A DNA stretch of 15,464 nt from Promethearchaeota archaeon (GTDB lineage: Archaea; Asgardarchaeota; Lokiarchaeia; Sigyniarchaeales; SOKP01): assembly GCA_011364975.1 (NCBI GenBank), contig RDOE01000075.1:1-15464 (forward strand), in the 5' to 3' direction. Under the pieces are notes generated by a model that did no database searches, was not told where the DNA came from, and saw only the letters and a list, made by a program, of their open reading frames with translations. This document shows, one piece after another, positions 4,326 through 15,342 of this stretch. Numbering within the stretch: position 1 is the stretch's first letter; each line of letters begins with the position of its first letter. Position numbers and translations under genes: made by a program.

Positions 4326-5834
4326 ATGATAAATTCAAATAATAATCCAGTAATCATTGGAATAGCACAGCATACTCAGCCAAAAACCGTCTCTAAACCC
4401 CTTGATCCTTTAAGATTGATGCAGAAAACCTCGAAATTAGCTTTAAGGGATACTGAAGTAAAAGAGATAGAAAATTATATTAAATCGATTTATATGGTGA
4501 ATATACGGAGTTGGTCATACGAGGATGCACCTGGAACGTTAGCAGAGCAACTTAAAATTCTACCCAAAAGCAAAATTTATTTACCAGATGGCGGTAATAC
4601 CCCTCAAATGTTAGTCAATCGAGCTGCAAAAGCTATATTCCATGATCAAAATAATCTAATTTTAATAACAGGTGCAGAATCTGGATATTCGGCCTATAGA
4701 AGAGATAAAGAGTTGCTCAAAAAGTATTGGCCAGAAAAAAAAGAACCAAAATATATGGAAGGCAAACTTTGGAATGGTATAAACAATTTTGAAAATGCTT
4801 ATCGGCTTTCTAATCCTCCTTATACTTATGCATTATTTGAGACCGCATTAAGAGCATCTCTAAATAGATCTATTGATAATCATTTGAAGAAGATTGGAGA
4901 ATTATTTGGAAAGTTTTCTGAAATTGCTGCTAAAAATCCTTATGCATGGAATAAAGACTTATTCCAAGCTGATGATATAATAAAAGTTTCTGAGAAAAAT
5001 CGTTTGATTTCGTATCCATATAGCAAACTTATGTGCTCTAACCTCTTTGTTGACCAATCGGCGAGTTTAATTATTACAAGTGAAGCGTTCGCAAGCAAGC
5101 TTAAAGTTCCTAAAAATAAATGGGTCTATCTAATGGGTAGTGCTGATTTTGAAAATATATTTGCGATTTCACAAAGACCAAAATTATATGATTCACCCGC
5201 AGCGAGAGAAGGTGCTAAATTTGCGTTAAACCAAGCAGGATTAAATATTAACCAAATTGATGCATTTGATATATATAGTTGTTTTCCTTCAATTGTACAA
5301 ATAATAAGAAATGAACTTGGAATTAAGGAAGAAGATTCTCGTGATTTAACTATAACAGGAGGTCTTCCGTATTTTGGTGGCCCTTGGAGTAATTATTCAT
5401 TGCATGCGATAATAACCGCTGTTGAAAAAATTCGAAATAATCCTTCATTAAAGATAATGGTAATTGCTAATGGTGGATACAATACCAAACAATCATTTGG
5501 AATTTATGGGAAAAACCATCAAATAAAACCTAGATCTAAAATTGAGGAAGAAAAAATTCAAAAATCAATATTAGAGAAATCTTTACCACCGCCCGTAGAA
5601 CAAGCGAAAGGTTATATCACTGTAAAGGGGTATACGATTCCTTATGAAAGAACCGGAACTGCTATAAAAGGGATAATAATCGGAGAATTAGATGATCATC
5701 GTCGAACTTTAGCCTATGTCGATATCGAACCTAATATCTTACATCTATTAATAAATCAAGAATTTGTTGGAAAGAAGGTTGAAGTTTATTATGATTATAA
5801 AACCAAACATAATAGACTCTTATTAAACCTTTAG
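4326..5834 (+). CDS. Thiolase-like protein, TLP1 type (usually annotated acetyl-CoA acetyltransferase) with extra C-terminal domain
   Basis: 502 aa. Motifs PVIIGIAQ, GGNTPQMLVNRAA, NRLISYPYSKLMCSNLFVDQ, DIYSCFP, LTITGGLPYFGGPWSNYSLHAI and ANGG, plus a ~80-aa beta-rich C-terminal extension (GYTIPYER...RRTLA). Confidence 0.85.
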   Translation: MINSNNNPVIIGIAQHTQPKTVSKPLDPLRLMQKTSKLALRDTEVKEIENYIKSIYMVNIRSWSYEDAPGTLAEQLKILPKSKIYLPDGGNTPQMLVNRAAKAIFHDQNNLILITGAESGYSAYRRDKELLKKYWPEKKEPKYMEGKLWNGINNFENAYRLSNPPYTYALFETALRASLNRSIDNHLKKIGELFGKFSEIAAKNPYAWNKDLFQADDIIKVSEKNRLISYPYSKLMCSNLFVDQSASLIITSEAFASKLKVPKNKWVYLMGSADFENIFAISQRPKLYDSPAAREGAKFALNQAGLNINQIDAFDIYSCFPSIVQIIRNELGIKEEDSRDLTITGGLPYFGGPWSNYSLHAIITAVEKIRNNPSLKIMVIANGGYNTKQSFGIYGKNHQIKPRSKIEEEKIQKSILEKSLPPPVEQAKGYITVKGYTIPYERTGTAIKGIIIGELDDHRRTLAYVDIEPNILHLLINQEFVGKKVEVYYDYKTKHNRLLLNL

Positions 5835-5922: not shown

Positions 5923-7167
5923 ATGAAGTATAGAAAAATGGGTTCCCTTGACTGGGATGTATCTGCTTTAGGTTTTGGAGCGATGCGTTTACCAGTTATA
6001 CCAATCAAAGATGAAAAAACGGGTGAAATGATCTATAAGGTAAATGAAGAAGAAGCAATTAAGATGATCCGTTATGCTATCGATAATGGAGTTAATTATA
6101 TTGATACTGCATACCCATATCACAATGGAGAAAGTGAAGTGGTTGTAGGAAAAGCACTGAAGGATGGATATCGCGAGAAAGTTCATCTTACTACGAAATT
6201 ACCTATGTGGCAAGTAAAAAATACTGAAGATTTTGAAAAGTTTTTAAGTGAACAGATCCAGAGGTTACAAACAAATCCAGATATATACTTGTTTCATGGT
6301 TTAAATAAGTCTCGTCTTGAGAAAATTAAGGAATTACGATTAATTAAAAAAATGGAAGAAGCAAGGGAAGAGGGCTTAATTAAATATATTGGGTTTTCAT
6401 TTCACGATAATGTAGAGGTTTTTAAAGAAATTACTGATTATTATGATTGGGATTGTTGTCAGATACAACATAATTATTTAGACATTAATTATCAAGCGGG
6501 AACAGAAGGTTTACGATATGCGGGAAAAAAGGGTATAGCAGTTATCATTATGGAACCAATTCGTGGAGGTAAATTAGCGATCCCAGAGAATAAACTCGAA
6601 ACGCGTCCAGAAATAAAGAATATTCTTGAAAAATCTCAATCCAAAAGATCTATGCCTGATTGGGCACTTCAATTTTTATGGAATCAACCAGAAGTCTCTG
6701 TTGTGTTGAGTGGAATGAGTACTATGCAACATGTTATTGAGAATGTTGAATCGGCAAATAATTCTGGAATAAAAATTTTAAACGAAGACGAATTAGCTAC
6801 AATTTCAGAACTACGGGAAGCATATGAGAAGTACACATATGTTCCATGTACAAGTTGTGGGTATTGTTTACCATGCCCTAATGATGTTGGTATTCCAGGA
6901 GTTTTGAGACTTCTCAATGAAGTATATTATTGGGGCGAACAAGGAAAACAAAGAATTTCTTATTTCTACAATAATATGGCTAAAACAAAGGAAGAAATCG
7001 AAACTAAACGAGAAAATGGTGATGAATACGAAGGTGCTGCAGTATTATGTGTTCAATGTGGTGAATGTTTAGATAAATGCCCACAACAAATTGAAATCCC
7101 TGAAATGATGTTAAAAGCGAATGCTATTTTTGAAGATAATAAAAAAGTAGTTGACACCCTAGATTAA
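5923..7167 (+). CDS. Aldo/keto reductase with C-terminal 4Fe-4S dicluster domain (COG1453-like)
   Basis: 414 aa. SALGFGAMRLP, GVNYIDTAYPYH, TKLP, YIGFSFH, IMEPIRGG and VVLSGMS, with C-terminal CTSCGYCLPCP and CVQCGECLDKCP. Confidence 0.93.
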   Translation: MKYRKMGSLDWDVSALGFGAMRLPVIPIKDEKTGEMIYKVNEEEAIKMIRYAIDNGVNYIDTAYPYHNGESEVVVGKALKDGYREKVHLTTKLPMWQVKNTEDFEKFLSEQIQRLQTNPDIYLFHGLNKSRLEKIKELRLIKKMEEAREEGLIKYIGFSFHDNVEVFKEITDYYDWDCCQIQHNYLDINYQAGTEGLRYAGKKGIAVIIMEPIRGGKLAIPENKLETRPEIKNILEKSQSKRSMPDWALQFLWNQPEVSVVLSGMSTMQHVIENVESANNSGIKILNEDELATISELREAYEKYTYVPCTSCGYCLPCPNDVGIPGVLRLLNEVYYWGEQGKQRISYFYNNMAKTKEEIETKRENGDEYEGAAVLCVQCGECLDKCPQQIEIPEMMLKANAIFEDNKKVVDTLD

Positions 7168-7580: not shown

Positions 7581-7850
7581 TTATCCATATTGGTAAACAA
7601 TTCCTGTGCCACCCTCAGGATACATAAAATTTATAGCCCCTGGTTCACAGACTTGAGCACAACTCCCACATTCTAAGCATTTAGTCTTATAATCATCAAT
7701 AATAGATGCTACACCATCTTTCACTTTCCAAAGATTTACAATACAAATTATTGCACATTGATTACAACCGTTACATTTAGATTTATCAATGGTTATAAAA
7801 TTACTTGTACTAGGTATATGTTTAGATAATCCCTCTAATTCAATTTTCAT
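7581..7850 (-). CDS. fixX: FixX-like 2x[4Fe-4S] ferredoxin
   Basis: 89 aa. CNGCNQCAIIC and CLECGSCAQVCEP, with C-terminal YPEGGTGIVYQYG matching the FixX-type YPxGGxGVxYxxG tail. Start abuts the upstream stop (TAA-ATG), with SD-like GAGGAGG ~10 nt upstream. Confidence 0.8.
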   Translation of the reverse strand: MKIELEGLSKHIPSTSNFITIDKSKCNGCNQCAIICIVNLWKVKDGVASIIDDYKTKCLECGSCAQVCEPGAINFMYPEGGTGIVYQYG

Positions 7851-9254
7851 TTAATTTATCCCTCCTCTTTGTTTCTTTTTCGGAATCATATCTAAAACTT
7901 TTGGTAGAACCGTCATTAATTTTGATGGATCCATTAATTTATCAAGATCATTTTCAAATATTTTTGCTATAAGAGGAAATACGTATTTCATGATGAAAGG
8001 TAATGCTTGTGGCATATAAGATTTAATTTGGGAGGCTATTTCTCTAACTCTTGTTGCATGCGGCTGAGACCAATCATAAATTCCTCCCATTACCTCCATG
8101 AACATTGGCACAAACCAACTCATTGTTTCCTTAGGACTAAATGGTAATGCCTTCCAAATATTATATAATTCTTCACCCGATTTGAAATCTTCTCCTACTG
8201 ATGTTTTTTGCCATAACTCATCATAATTAGAAAGAGCCTTTTTAGAAACGTCTCCAGCAGTGATTGCATTAGCAGCACATTCAACGGCTGCTTTTCCAGT
8301 AACTATAGCAGGATAAATTCCTTCAGCTTCAAGTGGACAGGGAAATCCTCCAGCATCCCCAATTAAAATGACACCATCTGTATGTGTATTGTATGGGAAT
8401 TTAAGCCAAGGAAGCAAATGACATTGTAATTCTCTTGGTTTTGCTTCTAAAATTTTTAATAATCTTTGATAATACTTTAGATTTATAACCTCATTTAGAT
8501 AATATAAAGGATTTCTATCCCATTTATCAAGCCAATTACCTAATCCTTGATGAAACCCGTCATTGAAAAAAACTTGATAAGACGCAGGAAACAAAGCAGA
8601 CCACCAGACTGCTAAAGCCTCATCACCCATTATATCATCAATTTTATTGGGAGGTGCATGAAAATCATATTGGGGAACAGCCGTAATCTGAGTGTGAGAC
8701 CATTTAGAACGCAACCCACTTTGCTTGGCTACCATCGAAATCGCTCCATCAGCTCCAATTACGACAGAGGCTTTGTATTTTATTCCATGCTCATCAATAA
8801 CACCACAAACTTTACCTTCTTCTTTTAGTAGGTCAATAATCAGGGTTGAGGTTTTCAATTCAGCACCAGCATTAGTAGCTAATTCAGCAATCCATGGATC
8901 GAATTCATTTCGATAACAATTCATGGTAATCCAGCTTTTAGCTGGTTCATAAGACACAGACTCAGTTGGACGCGTCATTATATAACCTGCTACAATCCCT
9001 TCAGAATTAATAAAATAATTTCGAGCCGCTGCTCCTGCTCGGAGTGATGGGCATTTTTCAGGTGTTAATTCTTTCATCATTAAAGGAAATTCACGCCACA
9101 AACGAGGTCCCAACCCACATCCAGAAGAATTTTTTTCTCCTGGTTTTCGACCACGTTCAAAAAATATTGTTTTTAATCCTTTTTCAGCAGCACATTTAGT
9201 AGCCATAGAACCTCCTGGACCTGCACCAACAATAATTATATCATATGTTGTCAA
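7851..9254 (-). CDS. FixC/geranylgeranyl-reductase superfamily FAD-dependent oxidoreductase (FixC-like)
   Basis: 467 aa, TTG start preceded by AGGTGA. Rossmann motif YDIIIVGAGPGG, FixC-like ERGRKPGEKNSSG, RNEFDPWIA, VIGADGA and ILIGDAGGF...EGIYPA. Adjacent to a FixX-like ferredoxin. Confidence 0.82.
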   Translation of the reverse strand: MTTYDIIIVGAGPGGSMATKCAAEKGLKTIFFERGRKPGEKNSSGCGLGPRLWREFPLMMKELTPEKCPSLRAGAAARNYFINSEGIVAGYIMTRPTESVSYEPAKSWITMNCYRNEFDPWIAELATNAGAELKTSTLIIDLLKEEGKVCGVIDEHGIKYKASVVIGADGAISMVAKQSGLRSKWSHTQITAVPQYDFHAPPNKIDDIMGDEALAVWWSALFPASYQVFFNDGFHQGLGNWLDKWDRNPLYYLNEVINLKYYQRLLKILEAKPRELQCHLLPWLKFPYNTHTDGVILIGDAGGFPCPLEAEGIYPAIVTGKAAVECAANAITAGDVSKKALSNYDELWQKTSVGEDFKSGEELYNIWKALPFSPKETMSWFVPMFMEVMGGIYDWSQPHATRVREIASQIKSYMPQALPFIMKYVFPLIAKIFENDLDKLMDPSKLMTVLPKVLDMIPKKKQRGGIN

Positions 9255-9407
9255 TCTTTCACCTTTAATAGAGTAAATTAGTAAAAGTATAATAAAGAAA
9301 AATAAGAGGATTATTAATATAAAATTGACTTCATAAACTAAATCAAAAGAGCTTTATACATTAAATTATTGTAAAGAATAATTGTGTTTAAATGAAATTA
9401 GGATATT
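9255..9407. promoter_or_regulatory. Divergent promoter region with back-to-back TATA-like boxes
   Basis: Plus strand: purine-rich CAAAAGAG then TTTATA (9353-9358), ~50 nt before ATG 9408. Minus strand: TTTTATAT (9317-9324) and SD AGGTGA (9259-9264) before TTG 9254. The AT-rich background limits certainty. Confidence 0.45.
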
Positions 9408-10871
9408 ATGAGAGACGATTTAATATATACTAGCTTAGTAAAGATTTTTGGTTCAAGGTGCGTTTTTAATGATCCAAAAGAATTGATGAAATATTCTAAT
9501 GATATGAGCTTCTACAAAGGTAAAATTCCAAAATTCGTTGTTTTCCCCTCTAAAGTTAGACAAATAGAAGAAGTTCTAAAATTAGCAAACATGTTAAAAT
9601 TTTCAATCATTCCAATAAGTTCTAACTCTCGATTTAAACATCATGGTGATAGTATTCCTAGAAGTGATAATTCTATAATATTAAATCTTTCTAATATGAA
9701 AAAAATCCTCTCTATAGATCGAAAAAATAGAGTAGTCATGGTTGAACCTGGAGTTACTTTTGGAGAATTAATTACAAAGCTCAAAAAAAAGGGGTTAAGG
9801 TTATTAACTCCTTTAAGTCCGACGGCGTCTAAATCAGTCTTGGTTGCAGCGCTTGAAAGAGAACCAATTATAATACCCCGCTATCATTGGGACAGTTCTG
9901 ACCCCTTATTGTGTACGGAGGTGGTCTTTGGAACTGGAGATTTATTAAGAACAGGGACGGCTGCTGGTCCGGGAACAATAAAACAACAACAAAAAGCAGG
10001 TCAAGCGCAAGTTAATCCAATGGGCCCTACTCAATTCAGTCCTTTTAGAGTAATACAAGGTGCTCAAGGTAGTTTAGGAGTAGTAACCTGGGCTACGTTA
10101 AAATTAGAATTATTACCCTTTATTCAGAAGGCTTACCATCTTCAATCTGAGAATATCCAAGAGCTGTTAGATATTCAATATGAATTGTTGAAATTCAGAC
10201 TCTGCGATGAGCTCCTCATTTTGAATAATTTAAATCTAGCATGTTTGTTAAAAAAAAGACCACAAGAAATTTTAGAACTTTCAGAAAAATTAAGTAAATG
10301 GAACCTGATTTTTGTTATCTCTGGTCGGGGGCCTTTAGCAAAAGATAAGATTTTTTATCTTGAAGGGGACATAGATGAGATTAGAGAAAGATTAGGCTAT
10401 AACTTTTCAAGCATACATACAGATACATTTAATAGAGAAATACTTAATATTCTTAATGAACCATGTGATCAGCCTTGGAGAACGAGATTTAAAAGTACCT
10501 ATCAAGATATTTTCTTTTTAACTAGTTTTGAAAAAATTCCTAAATTTATCTCTATAGTTGAAGCCCAATTTGCAACAGAATTAGGTATCTACATTCAACC
10601 AATAAATCAAGGAACTGCATATCACACTGAATTTGATATTTATTATGATCCAGAGGATCAAGACATGGAAAATACAGTTAAAAAGAAAATTTTAGATGTA
10701 ACTTTTCAACTAATGGAAAATGGAGCTTTTTTTAGTAGGCCCTATGGTTTGTGGGCAAAGGAAGTATACGCTCATCATAATTTAGAAACTATCGATGCTC
10801 TTAAAAAAGTAAAAAAAATATTCGATCCAAATAATGTATTAAATCCAGGAGTTTTATGTTTTGATGAGTAA
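9408..10871 (+). CDS. FAD-binding oxidoreductase, VAO/PCMH (FAD_binding_4, GlcD-like) family, subunit 1
   Basis: 487 aa. VVFPSKVRQIEEVLKLAN, ILNLSNMKKILSID, VEPGVTF, EVVFGTGDLLRTG, GAQGSLGVVT and C-terminal KKIFDPNNVLNPG. Confidence 0.9.
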   Translation: MRDDLIYTSLVKIFGSRCVFNDPKELMKYSNDMSFYKGKIPKFVVFPSKVRQIEEVLKLANMLKFSIIPISSNSRFKHHGDSIPRSDNSIILNLSNMKKILSIDRKNRVVMVEPGVTFGELITKLKKKGLRLLTPLSPTASKSVLVAALEREPIIIPRYHWDSSDPLLCTEVVFGTGDLLRTGTAAGPGTIKQQQKAGQAQVNPMGPTQFSPFRVIQGAQGSLGVVTWATLKLELLPFIQKAYHLQSENIQELLDIQYELLKFRLCDELLILNNLNLACLLKKRPQEILELSEKLSKWNLIFVISGRGPLAKDKIFYLEGDIDEIRERLGYNFSSIHTDTFNREILNILNEPCDQPWRTRFKSTYQDIFFLTSFEKIPKFISIVEAQFATELGIYIQPINQGTAYHTEFDIYYDPEDQDMENTVKKKILDVTFQLMENGAFFSRPYGLWAKEVYAHHNLETIDALKKVKKIFDPNNVLNPGVLCFDE

Positions 10872-10904
10872 AGTTAAAAATATTTTTTCAAAATAAAAAA
10901 ATCC

Positions 10905-12221
10905 ATGAGGATTAAAATGGAAGAAGAAAAATATCAGAAAATGATTAAACGCTGTTTACGTTGTTCTGTATGTAAATGGATACCTCAAGTCCAGATAAAA
11001 AGTCAAAAATATGCTTCGGGATGTCCAGCGATAGATATTTATAATTTCCATCCTTACAGTGGTGGGGGAAAAATAATTCTCGCTCTTGCATATGAGATGG
11101 GAAGACTCAAACCAACAGAGGAACTTCGTGATATAGTTTATAAATGTACTGAATGTGGAAATTGCGCAGTGGCATGTAAATATATGAACACTTTAGAACC
11201 TTTGGAGATAATTATGAAATTGAGAGAGAAATTAGTCTCAGTAGGGTGTGGTCCTATGCCAAAACAGCAAGCCTATATAGATGCAGTTAAAAAAGTCCAT
11301 AATCCATATAATGAACCTCACGAAAAAAGAATCGATTGGTTAACAGATGAAATTAAACTTGATCCAAATGCAAAAGTGCTGTATTTTGTAGGTTGTACTT
11401 CTTCCTACAGAAGAAAAGAAATGGCAATAGCTGCTGCACGTATTATGAATGAAGCAGGAGTTCCATTTAACATTTTACAAGACGATGAATTTTGCTGTGG
11501 AAGTCCGATATTACGTACTGGGGATGTGTATACATTTGAACAAATTCTCAATAGAAATATAGATATAATAGAATCTAAGGGAATAGAAACAGTAGTTTTT
11601 AGTTGTGCTGGTTGTTATGATACTTTTAAAGTCGATTACCCTTTACGCAGAAAATATAATTTTAGAGTTTTACATACCGTGGAACTTTTTGATGAGTTAA
11701 TCACCTCAAGACAATTACAATTAACAAATCAAGTTCCACTAATTGTAACCTACCATGATCCTTGTCATTTAGGTAGAAACGCCGAAAGGTATGAAGATTG
11801 GGATGGTGATATTGTTCCATTAATGCCCTTGGTTTCAATTAATATCCCTCCAAAACCCAAAAGGACGGGTTCTAAGGGTGTTTATGATGCTCCAAGAAAT
11901 ATACTTAATAGTATTCCTGGATTGAAATTCGTTGAGATGGAAAGGATTCAAGAGTATGCTTATTGTTGTGGAGCAGGAGCAGGAGTAAAATCAGCGTTTC
12001 CTGAAATGGCTTTAAAGACTGCAATAACTCGAGTTGATGAGGCTGAAGATTCTGGTGCAGAAATAATAGTATCTGCTTGTCCATTTTGCTCCACGAACTT
12101 GCAAGATGGCATTAAAGGGAAAAATTCTAAATTAATTTATTATGATATTAATGAATTAATTCTGATGGCTTTAGGTCTGGAGACTGAAAAAATGAAACAA
12201 GCAACTGCGGAGGTTGTATAA
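10905..12221 (+). CDS. Fe-S oxidoreductase with N-terminal 4Fe-4S dicluster and two CCG domains (GlcF/GlpC/HdrD family)
   Basis: 438 aa (true start may be ATG 10917, after GAGGA). CLRCSVC...CP, CTECGNCAVAC, YFVGC, FCCGSP, SCAGC, YHDPCHLGR, YCCGAGAG and SACPFC. Confidence 0.92.
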   Translation: MRIKMEEEKYQKMIKRCLRCSVCKWIPQVQIKSQKYASGCPAIDIYNFHPYSGGGKIILALAYEMGRLKPTEELRDIVYKCTECGNCAVACKYMNTLEPLEIIMKLREKLVSVGCGPMPKQQAYIDAVKKVHNPYNEPHEKRIDWLTDEIKLDPNAKVLYFVGCTSSYRRKEMAIAAARIMNEAGVPFNILQDDEFCCGSPILRTGDVYTFEQILNRNIDIIESKGIETVVFSCAGCYDTFKVDYPLRRKYNFRVLHTVELFDELITSRQLQLTNQVPLIVTYHDPCHLGRNAERYEDWDGDIVPLMPLVSINIPPKPKRTGSKGVYDAPRNILNSIPGLKFVEMERIQEYAYCCGAGAGVKSAFPEMALKTAITRVDEAEDSGAEIIVSACPFCSTNLQDGIKGKNSKLIYYDINELILMALGLETEKMKQATAEVV

Positions 12222-12224
12222 ATA

Positions 12225-13796
12225 GTGTTAGGAAAACAAATTCTTAAAGAATTTCAAGAAATTGTTGGCGTAGAAAACATAAATGATGGAGAAGTAATGA
12301 CAAATGCTTATGCATACAATTGGTGTACTGAATTTGTAAATTATATGAATGGTAACGATCCTATCCCATTCTCTCCCATTCCAAAAGCAATTATATTACC
12401 CTCAACGACAGAAGAAGTTCAGAAAGTCATACAAATTTGTAGTAAATATAAAATTCAATTTAAAGCACAAAGCACTGGTCTTGGACCGTGGAATCAACCA
12501 TCTACTGATAATTCAGTGATACTAGATCTACGTAGGATGAATAAAATCGTAAAAATTAATATAAAAAATCTTTATGCTGTAGTTGAACCATATGTTACCG
12601 GTGCACAACTTCAAGCAGAAGTTATGAAATATGGGCTAAACGTGCATATGCCCGGTGCAGGTCCTATGGCTTCACCTTTAGCAAGTCATACATCAATGGC
12701 AGGTCCTGGTTTTACCTCGCCCCAAACGGGTCATAGTGCAAGAAATGTATTAGGCACGGAATGGGTATTACCAACAGGAGAAATTCTTAGGTTGGGTTCA
12801 CTTGGGTTAAATAATAATTCTGATTGGTTTTCTGGTGATGGACCTGGTCCGAGTTTACGAGGTATAATGCGGGGATGGGTGGGAACTAAGTCTGGGCTTG
12901 GAGTATTTACTCGAGTAGCAATAAAATTATTTCCTTATCCCTGTGATACCGAATTTATCTTAAAAGGCCATGCTCCTTTATATGATTTTAAATTACCTGA
13001 CTTTATTCGAGTTTATGTAGTGGATTGTGGGAACTTCAAACACTTGGAGAAATCTCTATTAAGGGTTGAGGAAGAAGAAATTGCATTCATATGCAGTCAT
13101 ATGTCTAGCTATGCTGTAATGGCAATTTTCTCTTATACTTTAGAAAGTTTAATAGATAAATTAGCAGTGGGAAGTATGAAATGTCCATTAGTTATTGTTA
13201 TAGCAGCACGTACAAAACGAGAATTTGAGTATAAACAAAAAGTTATGAACTATTTAATGAAAGAGCTTAAACTAACTAATATAATTGGAACGAAATACAC
13301 TCCCGAATCAGTTTTTTTTGCAGAATGTTTACGTGCTAATTTGGGATACCATGGCTTTATTGCAACGGGAGGTTTCCAATCAGCTAAGGGTCAATGTGAT
13401 TCTGCAGCTCTTTGCCTTCGAGCAGAAATGAAAAATACACCATTAAAAAAGAAATATATTAAAAAAGGAGTAATAGCCAACGATTTTGGAGAAGGCGCAT
13501 GGATGACTTCATACGAATCAGGGCATTATTTCCATATGGAAGCTCCAACTTTTTTTGATCAAACTGAGCTTGAAAGCGTTAAAGGAATGGGAGAATATCT
13601 TGAAGAAAGTAATCAAATAGATTTGCTTAAACACTTAGGTGTACCTTTTTTCATAGAAGGAGATAAATTACACAATAAATGGGGGCCATTTCTCATGAAT
13701 TATCATAAGTGGCTGCGAAAAATCAAAGAAACTTTCGATCCAAACGGGATTTCTGACTCAGGATTTTATATTTCAAGTAATCATGGGGGATTTTGA
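12225..13796 (+). CDS. FAD-binding oxidoreductase, VAO/PCMH (FAD_binding_4) family, subunit 2
   Basis: 523 aa, GTG start 3 nt after the upstream stop, with SD GGAGGT at 12209-12214. ILPSTTEEVQ, AQSTG, LDLRRMNKI, VVEPYVT, EWVLPTGEILRLGS, GPGPSLRG, GLGVFT and KIKETFDPNG. Confidence 0.9.
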   Translation: MLGKQILKEFQEIVGVENINDGEVMTNAYAYNWCTEFVNYMNGNDPIPFSPIPKAIILPSTTEEVQKVIQICSKYKIQFKAQSTGLGPWNQPSTDNSVILDLRRMNKIVKINIKNLYAVVEPYVTGAQLQAEVMKYGLNVHMPGAGPMASPLASHTSMAGPGFTSPQTGHSARNVLGTEWVLPTGEILRLGSLGLNNNSDWFSGDGPGPSLRGIMRGWVGTKSGLGVFTRVAIKLFPYPCDTEFILKGHAPLYDFKLPDFIRVYVVDCGNFKHLEKSLLRVEEEEIAFICSHMSSYAVMAIFSYTLESLIDKLAVGSMKCPLVIVIAARTKREFEYKQKVMNYLMKELKLTNIIGTKYTPESVFFAECLRANLGYHGFIATGGFQSAKGQCDSAALCLRAEMKNTPLKKKYIKKGVIANDFGEGAWMTSYESGHYFHMEAPTFFDQTELESVKGMGEYLEESNQIDLLKHLGVPFFIEGDKLHNKWGPFLMNYHKWLRKIKETFDPNGISDSGFYISSNHGGF

Positions 13797-14208
13797 AAAA
13801 ATGAATAATTTAAATCTAATTATAAAAGAACCAAAAGGATTTGCAGGATTAATTGCAAATGTGATGATGCCATTAAATGATAATCCTCAATTTAAAGAAA
13901 AATTCAAAAAAACCTCTCGTAAAATCCTTATTAATGCTACAAATTTAAATTACGCTGCTTTATTAACGATTGATAAAGGCAACTTAAAGGTAGAGAGCAT
14001 TCTGAATAAACCCAAGTCGAATCTCAACAAAAAGTTAATTGGATGGAATGGTTATGTTGCAATGGATACTCAAATATTTCTAGGATTTGCAACAAAAAGA
14101 CTTTCACTAATAAAGCTTGGATTAAAGGTTCTTAGGGGCGAAGTAAAGCTTAGAGGGATTTTAAAGTTACTAATTATATTTAAGTTAATTAAAATTTTAA
14201 CCAAGTAA
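13783..14208 (+). CDS. SCP2 (sterol carrier protein 2)-like lipid-binding protein
   Basis: 141 aa (alternative start ATG 13801). Pattern matches the SCP2 fold: ALLTIDKGNLKV, VAMDTQIFLGFATKRLS and VLRGEVKLRG followed by a terminal helix. Confidence 0.65.
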   Translation: MGDFEKMNNLNLIIKEPKGFAGLIANVMMPLNDNPQFKEKFKKTSRKILINATNLNYAALLTIDKGNLKVESILNKPKSNLNKKLIGWNGYVAMDTQIFLGFATKRLSLIKLGLKVLRGEVKLRGILKLLIIFKLIKILTK

Positions 14209-14286
14209 ATTGAAACCTAAAATAAATCACTTTCAGAAGCCTATTTATTCTTTAATATATTTTACTATTAAAATACAGTTTTTTCC

Positions 14287-15342
14287 TTGAATATTATGAC
14301 AAATAAGATTAAGGAAGTTTGGTTAGGTCCCGGAAAAAAAGATGGTCAAATTCGTGAGTTTAAACCAGAAAATGATGGACTTCATATTGATATGAAGCAG
14401 AGAGGTAATTTTGAATGGTGGTATTTTGATGCTCGCCTTGATAACGGATATATGGCAGTAGGTTTTTTTCGAGCTAAGCATGAACGAACAGGCAAAACTG
14501 GAGTAGAAATAACAATATATAAGCCAAATGGTGAAAAAATTCAAAAGGTTTATGATTATAAACACTCCGATTTAATAGCTTCAAATAAAGATGCAAATGT
14601 GAGGATTGGTAAAAATTATATCAAAGTAGATTATTCTAAGGAAACTTTACCCACCTATGAAATCTTTTTAGAAGAGGAGAATTTTGGGATTCATTTACAT
14701 TACAAACCAACAGTTAAAGGTTGGATGCCAGGTGAGGGATATACGGAATTTGGTAATTTAGGTGAATTTGGATGGGCTGTAGCAATTCCTAGGGCGGAAG
14801 TGTTTGGAAAATTAACAATTAATAATCAAGAAATTGCAGTTAAGGGTATTGGGTATCATGATCATAATTGGCTTACTTTTAATTTAGTAAGAGTTGTAGA
14901 TTATTGGTATTGGGGGCGAATCTACTCAAAGAATTTTACAATAATCTATGCATATATTAAATGTAATAAAAAAATGGATAATTATCCTATAAATATTTTA
15001 ATGCTTGCTAAAGAAGAGGAAATTATTGCAAGTACGGGTGATTTTGATTTAATAGATAAGGATTTCCAATATAATGAAAAAGCGGGAAATAAGTATCCTA
15101 AATCTCTTGAGTTTTTATTATCAAAGAAACAAAAAATTACTTTAAATGTTCAAAAAATTATTGATGCTGATAACTTACTCTTTGAATTAAATCCAATTCT
15201 TCGATTCCTTGCTAAGTATTTGTTACGAATTAAACCAGGATACTTTAGACTGAATTCTAAATTCTTAATTGATTTTGAATACGAGGATAATATCTACAAG
15301 GAGGAAGGAGATACATTGCATGAAATGGTTATTGTAAAATAA
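14287..15342 (+). CDS. CrtC/AttH-like (lipocalin-like double beta-barrel) protein; hydratase/cyclase superfamily
   Basis: 351 aa (probable start ATG 14296). FEWWYFDARLDNG, GWAVAIPRAEVFGKLTI, GIGYHDHNW, WYWGR and KYPKSL. Aromatic-rich, beta-strand-like, no TM segment. Confidence 0.75.
   Translation: MNIMTNKIKEVWLGPGKKDGQIREFKPENDGLHIDMKQRGNFEWWYFDARLDNGYMAVGFFRAKHERTGKTGVEITIYKPNGEKIQKVYDYKHSDLIASNKDANVRIGKNYIKVDYSKETLPTYEIFLEEENFGIHLHYKPTVKGWMPGEGYTEFGNLGEFGWAVAIPRAEVFGKLTINNQEIAVKGIGYHDHNWLTFNLVRVVDYWYWGRIYSKNFTIIYAYIKCNKKMDNYPINILMLAKEEEIIASTGDFDLIDKDFQYNEKAGNKYPKSLEFLLSKKQKITLNVQKIIDADNLLFELNPILRFLAKYLLRIKPGYFRLNSKFLIDFEYEDNIYKEEGDTLHEMVIVK

Follow-up and report, generated by a model that had tools for sequence, protein, structure and literature searches.

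A conserved seven-gene cluster of Asgard archaea as a candidate dehydrogenase module for prenylated lipids

Introduction

Dehydrogenases of the GlcDEF type join two homologous FAD-binding subunits to an iron-sulfur subunit with CCG domains, and they are among the closest described counterparts of the gene cluster considered here, which lies at positions 7581 to 15342 of a contig from Promethearchaeota archaeon (RDOE01000075.1). The window, meaning the whole stretch of DNA that was analysed, is 15,464 nucleotides (nt) long at about 30% GC and is one entire contig (G000:C178, for genome and contig) of a 3.74-Mb Asgard genome in 200 contigs. Seven genes are involved: a trio of two FAD subunits (FADa and FADb) on either side of a CCG subunit, a small protein with a predicted SCP2 fold, a protein of the AttH/CrtC superfamily and, on the opposite strand, a flavoprotein and ferredoxin resembling FixC and FixX. 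Our favoured reading, a tentative one to which we give a probability of roughly 0.4, is that they form a single co-regulated, inducible and accessory dehydrogenase module, independent of O2 and linked to ferredoxin or ETF, that acts on a lipophilic prenylated substrate.

The likeness to GlcDEF extends from two homologous FAD_binding_4 subunits with a dicluster/two-CCG subunit to the fold of FADb, whose model resembles D-lactate dehydrogenase overall. However, the proteins score far below the GlcD-type equivalog cut-offs, FADb has no FAD-oxidase_C domain, and the genes follow a D-F-E-like order and are linked to SCP2, AttH-like and FixC-like genes. Ldh-EtfAB (LctBCD) of Acetobacterium woodii is reportedly an electron-confurcating lactate dehydrogenase of the vanillyl-alcohol oxidase (VAO) fold that works with EtfAB. 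Its LctD subunit (7qh2_C) is a sequence match of both FAD subunits, EtfAB genes lie beside distant relatives of the trio, and the genome has an EtfA with a ferredoxin domain; unlike Ldh-EtfAB, the Asgard cluster has no Etf gene and includes an extra CCG subunit, a second FAD subunit and a FixC-like protein. p-Cresol methylhydroxylase (PCMH) and the other 4-phenol-oxidising VAO enzymes provide the best sequence matches of both FAD subunits and the best structure matches, but the Tyr-Tyr-Arg triad of PCMH is not kept except for the arginine in FADa, and a CCG Fe-S protein stands where PCMH has a cytochrome c subunit.

For the divergent pair, the obvious comparison is FixABCX/EtfABCX, where a small 2x[4Fe-4S] ferredoxin likewise comes after a FixC-superfamily flavoprotein. 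The PDB match to T. maritima FixC is a joint best, and 7 of the 14 non-Asgard loci with a homologue of the flavoprotein also carry EtfAB; the differences are that the FixC and FixX models are matched far below cut-off, that Asgard loci hold no EtfAB and that a quinone acceptor is doubtful. UbiJ presents prenylated intermediates in ubiquinone synthesis, and the UbiJ/UbiT SCP2 proteins resemble our small protein in fold and in being small lipid-binding proteins encoded beside soluble redox enzymes, whereas the small protein has no sequence-level SCP2 match. Proteins of the tocopherol cyclase family (PF14249) take the slot of the CrtC-like protein in 10 related loci, and the two families align at 85% probability, but none is encoded in the window or its genome and no homogentisate/prenylquinol pathway was seen there. 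Finally, the available text of 10.1101/2025.10.20.683597 describes Ted-Hgs, in which an AttH/CrtC-superfamily hydratase is coupled to an isoprenoid-chain redox enzyme, the AttH-like Hgs making hydroxylated glycerol dialkyl glycerol tetraether (GDGT). Ted is a B12-radical-SAM desaturase, whereas the partner in our cluster is a flavin/Fe-S dehydrogenase, and no radical SAM gene occurs in the window or the scanned neighbour loci. As far as that text goes, Hgs homologues are reported lacking in Asgard archaea at the thresholds of the paper, and our comparison with Ted-Hgs is by description, not by sequence.

No description of the cluster was found in the literature searched, which left supplements and most subscription journals outside its coverage. 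The parts (GlcDEF-like dehydrogenases, Etf/FixCX, SCP2 and AttH/CrtC) are known and the combination is new. If it does act on isoprenoid lipids, the module would hydroxylate, cyclise or degrade prenyl chains independently of both O2 and radical SAM chemistry, which would affect the interpretation of sediment biomarkers that are hydroxylated or cyclised archaeal lipids. SCP2-type carriers would also gain a concrete job in Asgard archaea. Eukaryotes have no closer known relatives than these archaea, which makes soluble lipid transfer in them interesting from an evolutionary viewpoint.

Organization and conservation of the cluster

The features of the cluster are listed below by position in the window, with lengths in nt or amino acids (aa).

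7581-7850, minus strand: FixX-like small ferredoxin, 89 aa, with two CxxCxxCxxxC motifs (2x[4Fe-4S])
7851-9254, minus strand: FAD flavoprotein of the superfamily of FixC and geranylgeranyl reductase (GGR), 467 aa, TTG start, C-terminal extension
9255-9407, no strand: divergent AT-rich promoter spacer, 153 nt
9408-10871, plus strand: FADa, a VAO/PCMH-fold subunit, 487 aa, FAD_binding_4
10905-12221, plus strand: GlcF/TfrB/HdrD-like Fe-S subunit, 438 aa, N-terminal 4Fe-4S dicluster (Fer4_8) and two CCG domains
12225-13796, plus strand: FADb, a VAO/PCMH-fold subunit with a divergent cap domain, 523 aa, GTG start, FAD_binding_4
13783-14208, plus strand: SCP2-fold, lipid-carrier-like protein, 141 aa, assigned by fold only; the start may be 13801
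14287-15342, plus strand: AttH/CrtC-superfamily double-lipocalin protein, a putative isoprene C=C hydratase, 351 aa, TTG start, with a CrtC N-terminal lipocalin domain

Spacings along the cluster are 153 nt (divergent), 33 nt, 3 nt, a 14-nt overlap and 78 nt. These values, and the coordinates, had been given in a first-pass annotation of the window and were borne out exactly, apart from two uncertain starts. The last gene probably begins at the ATG at 14296, which gives a protein of 348 aa and a preceding gap of 87 nt, because its homologues are 348 aa long. The small gene may start at the methionine at 13801, in which case it would not overlap FADb, because its orthologues are mostly 134-138 aa and residues 1-8 appear disordered in its model (predicted local distance difference test, pLDDT, <50). 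All seven family calls hold at the level of superfamilies, that of SCP2 being visible by fold alone.

Related loci were gathered with a pattern scan, one genome per species and a FADb alignment, giving 79 loci, 67 with Asgard names and 12 titled 'uncultured archaeon'. Arrangements were counted by tblastn with the window's twelve proteins, using only those loci with enough flank for the gene in question. FADa is found in 70 of 79 loci and the CCG subunit in 78 of 79; the FixC/GGR-like gene and its ferredoxin lie divergently upstream of FADa in 45 of 58, the small protein is encoded downstream of FADb in 62 of 66, and the CrtC-like gene follows it in 46 of 66. All seven genes occur together in 30 of 54 loci. 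The FixCX-like, SCP2-like and CrtC-like genes are thus conserved beside the triplet in related genomes, a point on which the first-pass annotation had made its proposal depend. Twelve loci taken by genome give the same picture, although at least some are the same contigs as in the set of 79 (e.g., loci L023 and L041) and are not independent. The closest named homologues of FADb and of the last gene come almost entirely from metagenome-assembled genomes of Asgard archaea (Promethearchaeota, Loki-, Hermod-, Hod- and Thorarchaeota), and FADb in Asgard clusters is at least 67% identical among the 120 listed.

The divergent spacer is also maintained, with a median of 148 nt over 46 loci and a length of ≤400 nt in 40 of them. 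Two blocks, TA..TAAA and AT.AAAA.ATCTT.AT, are kept in ≥80% of 38 distinct spacers and may represent a TATA box or operator. Because the arrangement recurs in 79 related loci with a near-constant spacer and conserved blocks, it is far beyond chance. Regulators are found nearby as well: a response-regulator receiver gene sits between FADa and the CCG gene in 21 of 79 loci (e.g., L078:7634-8521, 295 aa; split in L116), and PadR-type regulators and MFS transporters occur near the cluster in some loci. A few loci have a transposase or integrase insertion at the position of the response regulator. The window has no response-regulator gene there, its FADa-CCG gap being only 33 nt.

The module is accessory. 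An orthologue of FADb (E ≤1e-40) was found in 11 of 24 genomes of the same genus and in 0 of 11, 1 of 1 and 1 of 4 genomes of three other families, 40 relatives having been examined, and it is this patchiness among close relatives, together with absence even from several genomes that are ~100% complete, that sets the module apart from core functions. The orthologue in one genome of the genus (G024:C7:43329-44888, L015) contains a single in-frame TGA, for which a sequencing error, a pseudogene or recoding are all possible. Two relatives carry the CCG-FADb pair in tandem duplicate (L065:5610-11563 and L072). Mobile-element-like insertions lie in or beside the operon of some relatives (L060:2974-4191, L098:4789-8366 and L070:4629-8197), including an IS605 OrfB/TnpB-like gene and an integrase fragment; a further insertion between FADa and CCG consists of a 984-aa protein with a resolvase-type helix-turn-helix and a 208-aa partner on the opposite strand.

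The CrtC-like and SCP2-fold proteins

An indirect hint at the chemistry comes from the last gene of the cluster. Its 351-aa product exceeds the gathering scores of PF07143 (29.8 bits; 22.5) and PF24137 (30.8 bits; 27) and reaches 21.7 bits with Svf1_C. We do not regard it as a CrtC orthologue, because the CrtC equivalog NF045922 gives only 17.8 bits against a cut-off of 400, and its sole PDB sequence match is 7a0q, a 'CrtC domain-containing protein' (E 0.0099). Two blocks, E40-W-W-Y-x-D45 and Y187-H-D-H-N-W192, are invariant in 21 CrtC-like sequences. The available text of PMC4717167 names His239, Trp241, Tyr266 and Asp268 as catalytic residues of RgCrtC; compared at the level of motifs, the second block holds YxD and HxW at a spacing unlike that of CrtC.

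Where the CrtC-like gene is missing, its slot is often filled by a 326-327-aa protein of the tocopherol cyclase family. Over 66 loci, the last slot holds a CrtC-like gene in 46, a cyclase-like gene in 10, both in none and neither in 10. The two cyclase-like proteins that were scanned, from L116 (where one such gene lies at 12066-13049) and L098, match PF14249 at E 2e-22 and 7e-25 (80-88 bits vs a cut-off of 26.6). In a profile-profile alignment with hhalign, the CrtC-like and cyclase-like families join at 85% probability (E 6e-6, 147 columns), with the invariant GYHDHNW block of the former opposite GYIEKDW in the latter, and by this alignment we take them to be distant homologues. Prenyl double bonds are the targets of characterised members of both families. 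Those of the CrtC superfamily, according to the available text of PMC6013536 and PMC4717167, use an acidic Asp to hydrate isoprene bonds in carotenoids, in geranylgeraniol and in kievitone, a prenylated isoflavonoid. By analogy, the exchange of a hydratase-like for a cyclase-like gene is the strongest hint that the chemistry of the cluster centres on a prenyl C=C, and it strengthens the idea of prenyl double-bond chemistry put forward in the first-pass annotation.

A link to lipids is also suggested by the 141-aa protein. It has no match in Pfam (E ≤0.01), NCBIfam or PDB, by single sequence or by profile. Scanning the genome with PF02036 (E up to 10) gave 14 places but missed its gene. However, its AF2 model, made from 34 sequences, has a pLDDT of 89.3, and the Foldseek PDB matches listed, to rank 45 (E ≤0.035), are all SCP2 proteins or domains at template-modelling (TM) scores of 0.5-0.69. 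The best of these, at ~1e-4, are AF1534 of Archaeoglobus (3bn8), UbiJ-SCP2 (6h6o), human SCP2 and the C-terminal domain of an alkylsulfatase. With hhalign, the small-protein family aligns to the genome's own twelve SCP2 open reading frames (ORFs) at 85% probability (E 6e-6), and a protein-atlas search gives an SCP2 cluster at 0.91 as a supporting lead. The protein is therefore predicted, from its model, to have the SCP2 alpha/beta fold. A complex prediction for FADb with this protein (score 0.06, mark 0.32) says nothing either way.

The same genome encodes 12 SCP2 ORFs above cut-off, four of them grouped on contig C169. Elsewhere, a paralogous array (G000:C129:9000-25000, L039) has the plus-strand order SCP2-FAD-SCP2-FAD-CCG-CCG, preceded first by two genes for the D component of 2-hydroxyacyl-CoA dehydratase with an activator ATPase and then, nearer to it, by minus-strand CCG and FAD genes. 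The small protein itself has paralogues on contigs C11 (L036:7391-7786) and C159 (L037:7352-7759), 40% and 35% identical to it. One of these paralogues lies near two glycerophosphodiester phosphodiesterase genes, and the other near genes for a 553-aa PlsC-type acyltransferase, a HAD hydrolase and MFS transporters.

The trio outside Asgard archaea

The dehydrogenase core has a much wider distribution than the full cluster. An exhaustive search of a library of 1.84 billion proteins returned 161 representatives at E ≤1e-30, many full length and 30-41% identical, and alignment of these representatives led to 77 metagenome loci of 41-69% GC. The order FADa-CCG-FADb is found in 41 of the 77 and CCG-FADb in 54. 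A homologue of the 467-aa flavoprotein (31-43% identical) is present in 14 loci, a small ferredoxin in 15 and EtfA or EtfB genes in 14, with Etf and FixC-like genes both present in 7, for instance as Fa-CCG-Fb-EtfA-EtfB-FixC-Fd. Recurrent neighbours include SDR genes, runs of SnoaL-like genes, KstD-like flavoproteins, aldehyde:ferredoxin oxidoreductase (AOR), aldehyde dehydrogenase, CoA ligases and IclR/TetR regulators, and these neighbourhoods have a catabolic flavour. As no more than a lead, the protein atlas places the nearest named clusters of the distant relatives in Chloroflexota, Myxococcota and Thermodesulfobacteriota. In two of the metagenome loci (L131 and L132), two FADb-like genes stand in succession.

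When the 678 neighbouring metagenome ORFs were scanned with hidden Markov models (HMMs) for CrtC-like, cyclase-like, small and SCP2 proteins, one CrtC-like fragment (L143) and one SCP2 protein (L136) were found. Neighbour families of 153, 128 and 227 aa in these loci have no SCP2 kinship by hhalign (probability ≤0.3%). The SCP2 and AttH additions are specific to Asgard archaea in this sample, because each turns up in only 1 of 77 metagenome loci. The co-occurrence of all seven families in other taxa, which had been proposed as a check, was thus found in part: the trio and the FixC-like gene recur, but the full combination does not appear in the 77 loci. As a dehydrogenase family, the FAD-CCG-FAD trio with its FixC-like and Etf partners is widespread among anaerobes and unstudied, whatever it acts on, and the revealing accessory genes of the Asgard version make that version a good place to start in assigning a function to the family.

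The divergent pair and electron partners

The 89-aa protein matches Fer4 families, with the HgcB ferredoxin as its best NCBIfam model (40.9 bits), and stays below the FixX cut-off (NF011993, 21.3 bits vs 166). Its gene is directly downstream of that for the 467-aa flavoprotein, which is below the cut-offs of both candidate families (GG-red-SF, TIGR02032, 122 bits vs 158.8; FixC, NF007542, 73.1 vs 610) and has equal PDB matches to GGR of T. acidophilum (3oz2, 1.3e-20) and FixC of T. maritima (7koe_C, 1.4e-20). According to the available text of PMC10821996, GGR is marked by the motifs PxxYxWxFP and LxGD, and many archaeal GGR paralogues are labelled FixC. The 467-aa protein keeps LxGD (as LIGD), and the position of PxxYxWxFP reads AVWWSALFP. 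Along its whole sequence it shares 42% identity with one Etf-adjacent homologue (L153), against at most 28% with its own genome's other paralogues, and the Etf-adjacent relatives show the same HMM pattern, with the GGR superfamily above FixC. We lean slightly towards FixCX-like electron transfer proteins over a prenyl reductase for this pair, because homologues in distant relatives are Etf-adjacent and PxxYxWxFP is missing; on the same two grounds, an assignment of the flavoprotein and ferredoxin as an archaeal geranylgeranyl reductase was downgraded. The label 'FixCX-like' from the first pass is thus backed by context, namely the relatives in 14 non-Asgard loci, 7 of which also have EtfAB.

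The genome's only detected EtfB/EtfA pair is on another contig (G000:C165:1508-6752, L208), and this EtfA carries an N-terminal 2x[4Fe-4S] ferredoxin domain. The pair adjoins an SDR gene and a PF01593 flavoprotein of the phytoene-desaturase/amine-oxidase type. Three UbiA-family genes, one adjoining another GGR paralogue, and one UbiD gene are present in the genome; the MqnA/D family (PF02621) was not found, the classical Men and Ubi pathways being outside that search. A quinone acceptor is doubtful because MqnA/D was not found, and an earlier suggestion that the cluster is linked to membrane electron carriers is doubtful as well, since inspection by eye reveals no clear membrane segment in the CCG subunit. 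The electron partner is more likely to be ferredoxin or ETF. Endogenous synthesis of quinones or chromanols was also considered and is not supported, given that the genome lacks PF14249 and PF02621 and has a single UbiD, in a check that did not extend to Men/Ubi.

If the prenyl reductase assignment is taken up instead, the cluster can be read as remodelling the archaeon's own lipids, an alternative that we consider unlikely but that survives better than the others. The FixC/GGR-like protein would be a ferredoxin-fed prenyl reductase, the FAD/Fe-S complex would make or move a double bond, and the AttH-like protein would hydrate it to give hydroxylated archaeol/GDGT-type lipids; in a variant, the FAD/Fe-S complex would work reductively, like the VAO-family sterol C-24 reductase. 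On this reading the system would be a flavin-based counterpart of Ted-Hgs. It would account for GG-red-SF being the best HMM of the 467-aa protein and for its LxGD motif, and the available text of PMC10821996 notes that a ferredoxin gene is often found beside archaeal GGR genes. An AttH-like hydratase with a desaturase gives hydroxylated GDGT, and the lack of Hgs homologues reported for Asgard archaea in the accessible part of 10.1101/2025.10.20.683597 would leave a niche; GGR-family proteins are also said in the available text of PMC12004948 to be able to reduce terminal isoprene bonds in sterols. However, the catalytic motif is not kept, the protein is closer to Etf-adjacent homologues than to the genome's own GGR paralogues, and the paralogue beside the UbiA prenyltransferase is the likelier lipid GGR. 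Absence of the module from 13 of 24 genomes of the genus, several of them ~100% complete, would be odd for membrane synthesis, and flavin enzymes are not known to desaturate unactivated alkyl chains.

A related and more doubtful possibility is that isoprenoids are functionalised by flavin and Fe-S chemistry independently of O2 and radical SAM. Here, the SCP2 protein would lift a prenyl lipid from the membrane, the VAO heterodimer with the CCG subunit and the FixCX-like pair would make or shift an unsaturation, and the AttH-like enzyme would yield a tertiary alcohol or, in sister lineages, the cyclase-like enzyme a cyclic ether. If true, hydroxylated or cyclised archaeal lipids and sediment biomarkers would have a new source, and the lineage closest to eukaryotes would offer an early example of lipid metabolism assisted by a soluble lipid carrier.

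The dehydrogenase trio

FADa matches PF01565 at 59.6 bits and PF02913 at 24.7 bits, the latter in its C-terminal part only (profile positions 174-246 of 248), and FADb matches PF01565 at 82.6 bits with no PF02913 match. The 438-aa subunit matches PF02754 at 116.9 bits over two stretches, together with Fer4_8. Its NCBIfam matches are TfrB (210.9 bits; cut-off 385) and LdhH (118.9 bits), and its best PDB match is 9ojn_A (8e-34), which, from papers citing the entry in their available text, we take to be mycobacterial EtfD, an ETF-linked oxidoreductase. Two FAD_binding_4 proteins with one dicluster/two-CCG subunit fit a GlcD/GlcE/GlcF-like architecture. However, the GlcD equivalog TIGR00387 is not reached (68.7 and 62.8 bits vs 567.9), and only in the N-terminal FAD domain is there a match (1-85 and 1-179 of the 413 profile positions), whereas several paralogues in the same genome, also below the cut-off, align over positions 1-413. 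An ordinary lactate/glycolate dehydrogenase, the outcome the first-pass annotation had set against its own proposal, is therefore not what these scores point to.

This bears on a reading less likely again than those above, namely that the trio is an ordinary D-2-hydroxyacid dehydrogenase of a fermenting archaeon with FixCX-like electron transfer, and that the SCP2-like and AttH-like genes are conserved neighbours with no shared substrate. Besides the GlcDEF-like architecture, it can point to the fit of mouse D-lactate dehydrogenase, which by its PDB titles accepts hydrophobic 2-hydroxy acids, to the FADb model (TM 0.80 on target), and to the precedent of a characterised VAO-fold lactate dehydrogenase that works with EtfAB. 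The genome also has at least 7 further FAD_binding_4 paralogues (about 8 by search matches), several of them paired with CCG proteins and one pair beside the 2-hydroxyacyl-CoA dehydratase genes. Set against it, in addition to the low and partial GlcD scores, are the absence of PF02913 from FADb, the retention of the SCP2-like gene, tightly spaced after FADb, in 62 of 66 loci and of a hydratase or cyclase gene in 56 of 66, and the interleaving of SCP2 genes with FAD paralogues elsewhere in the genome.

In sequence, both FAD subunits are nearest to PCMH, vanillyl-alcohol dehydrogenase/oxidase and eugenol oxidase, with PCMH matches at 1e-20 and 3e-23 (the best FADa profile match being 3e-23) and lactate dehydrogenases at ~1e-10 to 1e-18. 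The AF2 model of FADb (pLDDT 84) matches PCMH (1dii) in Foldseek at 1e-28 (TM 0.74) and mouse LDHD at 3e-26 (TM 0.70/0.80), so the fold ranking does not separate the PCMH type from the D-lactate-dehydrogenase type. The phenolate-binding triad of PCMH is presumably Tyr95, Tyr473 and Arg474. In HMMER profile alignments, whose C-terminal part is weak (3-15 bits), these positions are Pro88 and Ile/Val-Pro in FADb, and His79 (for Tyr95), Ser/Asn443 (for Tyr473) and an invariant Arg444 (for Arg474) in FADa. The STG flavin loop is kept in FADb and reads SSxS in FADa. The least likely alternative is that prenylated phenols or quinols are processed, the PCMH/VAO-like subunits oxidising a para-alkylphenol or quinol, the cyclase/CrtC-like protein cyclising or hydrating the prenyl side chain, the FixC-like protein handling the quinone and the SCP2 protein acting as UbiJ does; it gains from the kinship to 4-phenol-oxidising enzymes, the PF14249 gene in the hydratase slot of 10 of 66 loci, UbiJ-SCP2 among the best structural matches, the action of kievitone hydratase on a prenylated isoflavonoid and the PadR-type regulators and MFS transporters near some loci, but the Tyr-Tyr-Arg triad, by the same weak alignments, is absent from FADb and reduced to Arg in FADa, the genome has neither MqnA/D nor tocopherol cyclase, the cluster has no aromatic prenyltransferase or methyltransferase gene, and the fold search ranks D-lactate dehydrogenase nearly as high as PCMH.

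Proposed mode of action

The favoured reading, an inducible dehydrogenase module for a lipophilic prenylated substrate, builds on a gene order, conservation, folds and hydratase-cyclase exchange that are observed. From its fold, the SCP2-like protein would take a lipid out of a membrane or micelle. The chemistry of its superfamily suggests that the AttH/CrtC-like enzyme would protonate an isoprene C=C and add water, and that in some relatives the tocopherol-cyclase-like enzyme would close a ring instead. The GlcDEF-like complex of FADa, FADb and the CCG subunit could, judging by fold and architecture, dehydrogenate an activated C-H or C-OH of the same molecule. Electrons would then travel by way of the [4Fe-4S] and CCG clusters, reaching the FixC-like flavoprotein and the 2x[4Fe-4S] ferredoxin, and onward to ferredoxin or the genome's single EtfAB, as the context in distant relatives suggests. 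That the proteins have a common substrate, as well as its class, the direction of electron flow and the order of the steps, we infer, and to name the substrate as an ether lipid, a sterol, a prenylquinol or another such compound would be a guess. Since its distribution in close relatives is patchy and regulator genes surround it, we favour conditional use of the module on exogenous or turnover isoprenoid lipids over a role in core membrane synthesis.

Several observations weigh against this reading. When water is added to a trisubstituted isoprene bond, the product is a tertiary alcohol, and no flavin dehydrogenase can oxidise such an alcohol; the hydration product is therefore not the substrate of the dehydrogenase, and the order and site of the two reactions are left unexplained. 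Given its altered STG loop, FADa may fail to bind FAD, and as far as the alignments can be trusted neither FAD subunit has a recognisable active-site signature of a characterised subgroup, so that there are no grounds to claim an active site of either the 4-phenol oxidase or the GlcD type. Outside Asgard archaea the trio occurs without the SCP2 or AttH genes, which the core enzyme therefore does not need, and 10 of the 66 Asgard loci have neither a hydratase nor a cyclase gene. No Etf gene lies within 10 kb of the cluster in the 79 Asgard loci, and the GGR superfamily model outscores those for FixC, so the 467-aa protein could itself be a prenyl reductase. Lastly, the 79 loci come from kin genomes, and their counts overstate independence.

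Flanking genes

The contig stops 122 nt past the last gene of the cluster. In relatives, a convergent gene for a 230-aa protein lies downstream of the cluster in 51 of 63 loci (e.g., L078:13112-13804, minus strand); it has no Pfam match and by eye shows a coiled-coil N terminus and a winged-helix-like C terminus, and like the response regulator it speaks for a regulated module. Past it come genes for an alpha/beta hydrolase, an MFS transporter, an M20 peptidase and an enoyl-CoA hydratase. Since these usual downstream genes are found on contig C9 in the genome studied here, and the window ends so soon after the cluster, that contig probably continues the window.

On the other side of the cluster, the window encodes a thiolase-like protein of type 1 at 4326-5834 (TLP1 C-terminal domain; PRK08257 model 393 bits, below cut-off), followed at 5923-7167 by an aldo-keto reductase fused to a C-terminal 4Fe-4S dicluster domain, homologues of which occur within 10 kb of the cluster in 8 of 79 related loci. 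At the left end, positions 112-1851 encode an alpha/beta hydrolase of 579 aa. It is a paralogue of this protein on contig C9, 41% identical to it, and not the copy in the window, that matches the hydrolase found downstream of the cluster in relatives.

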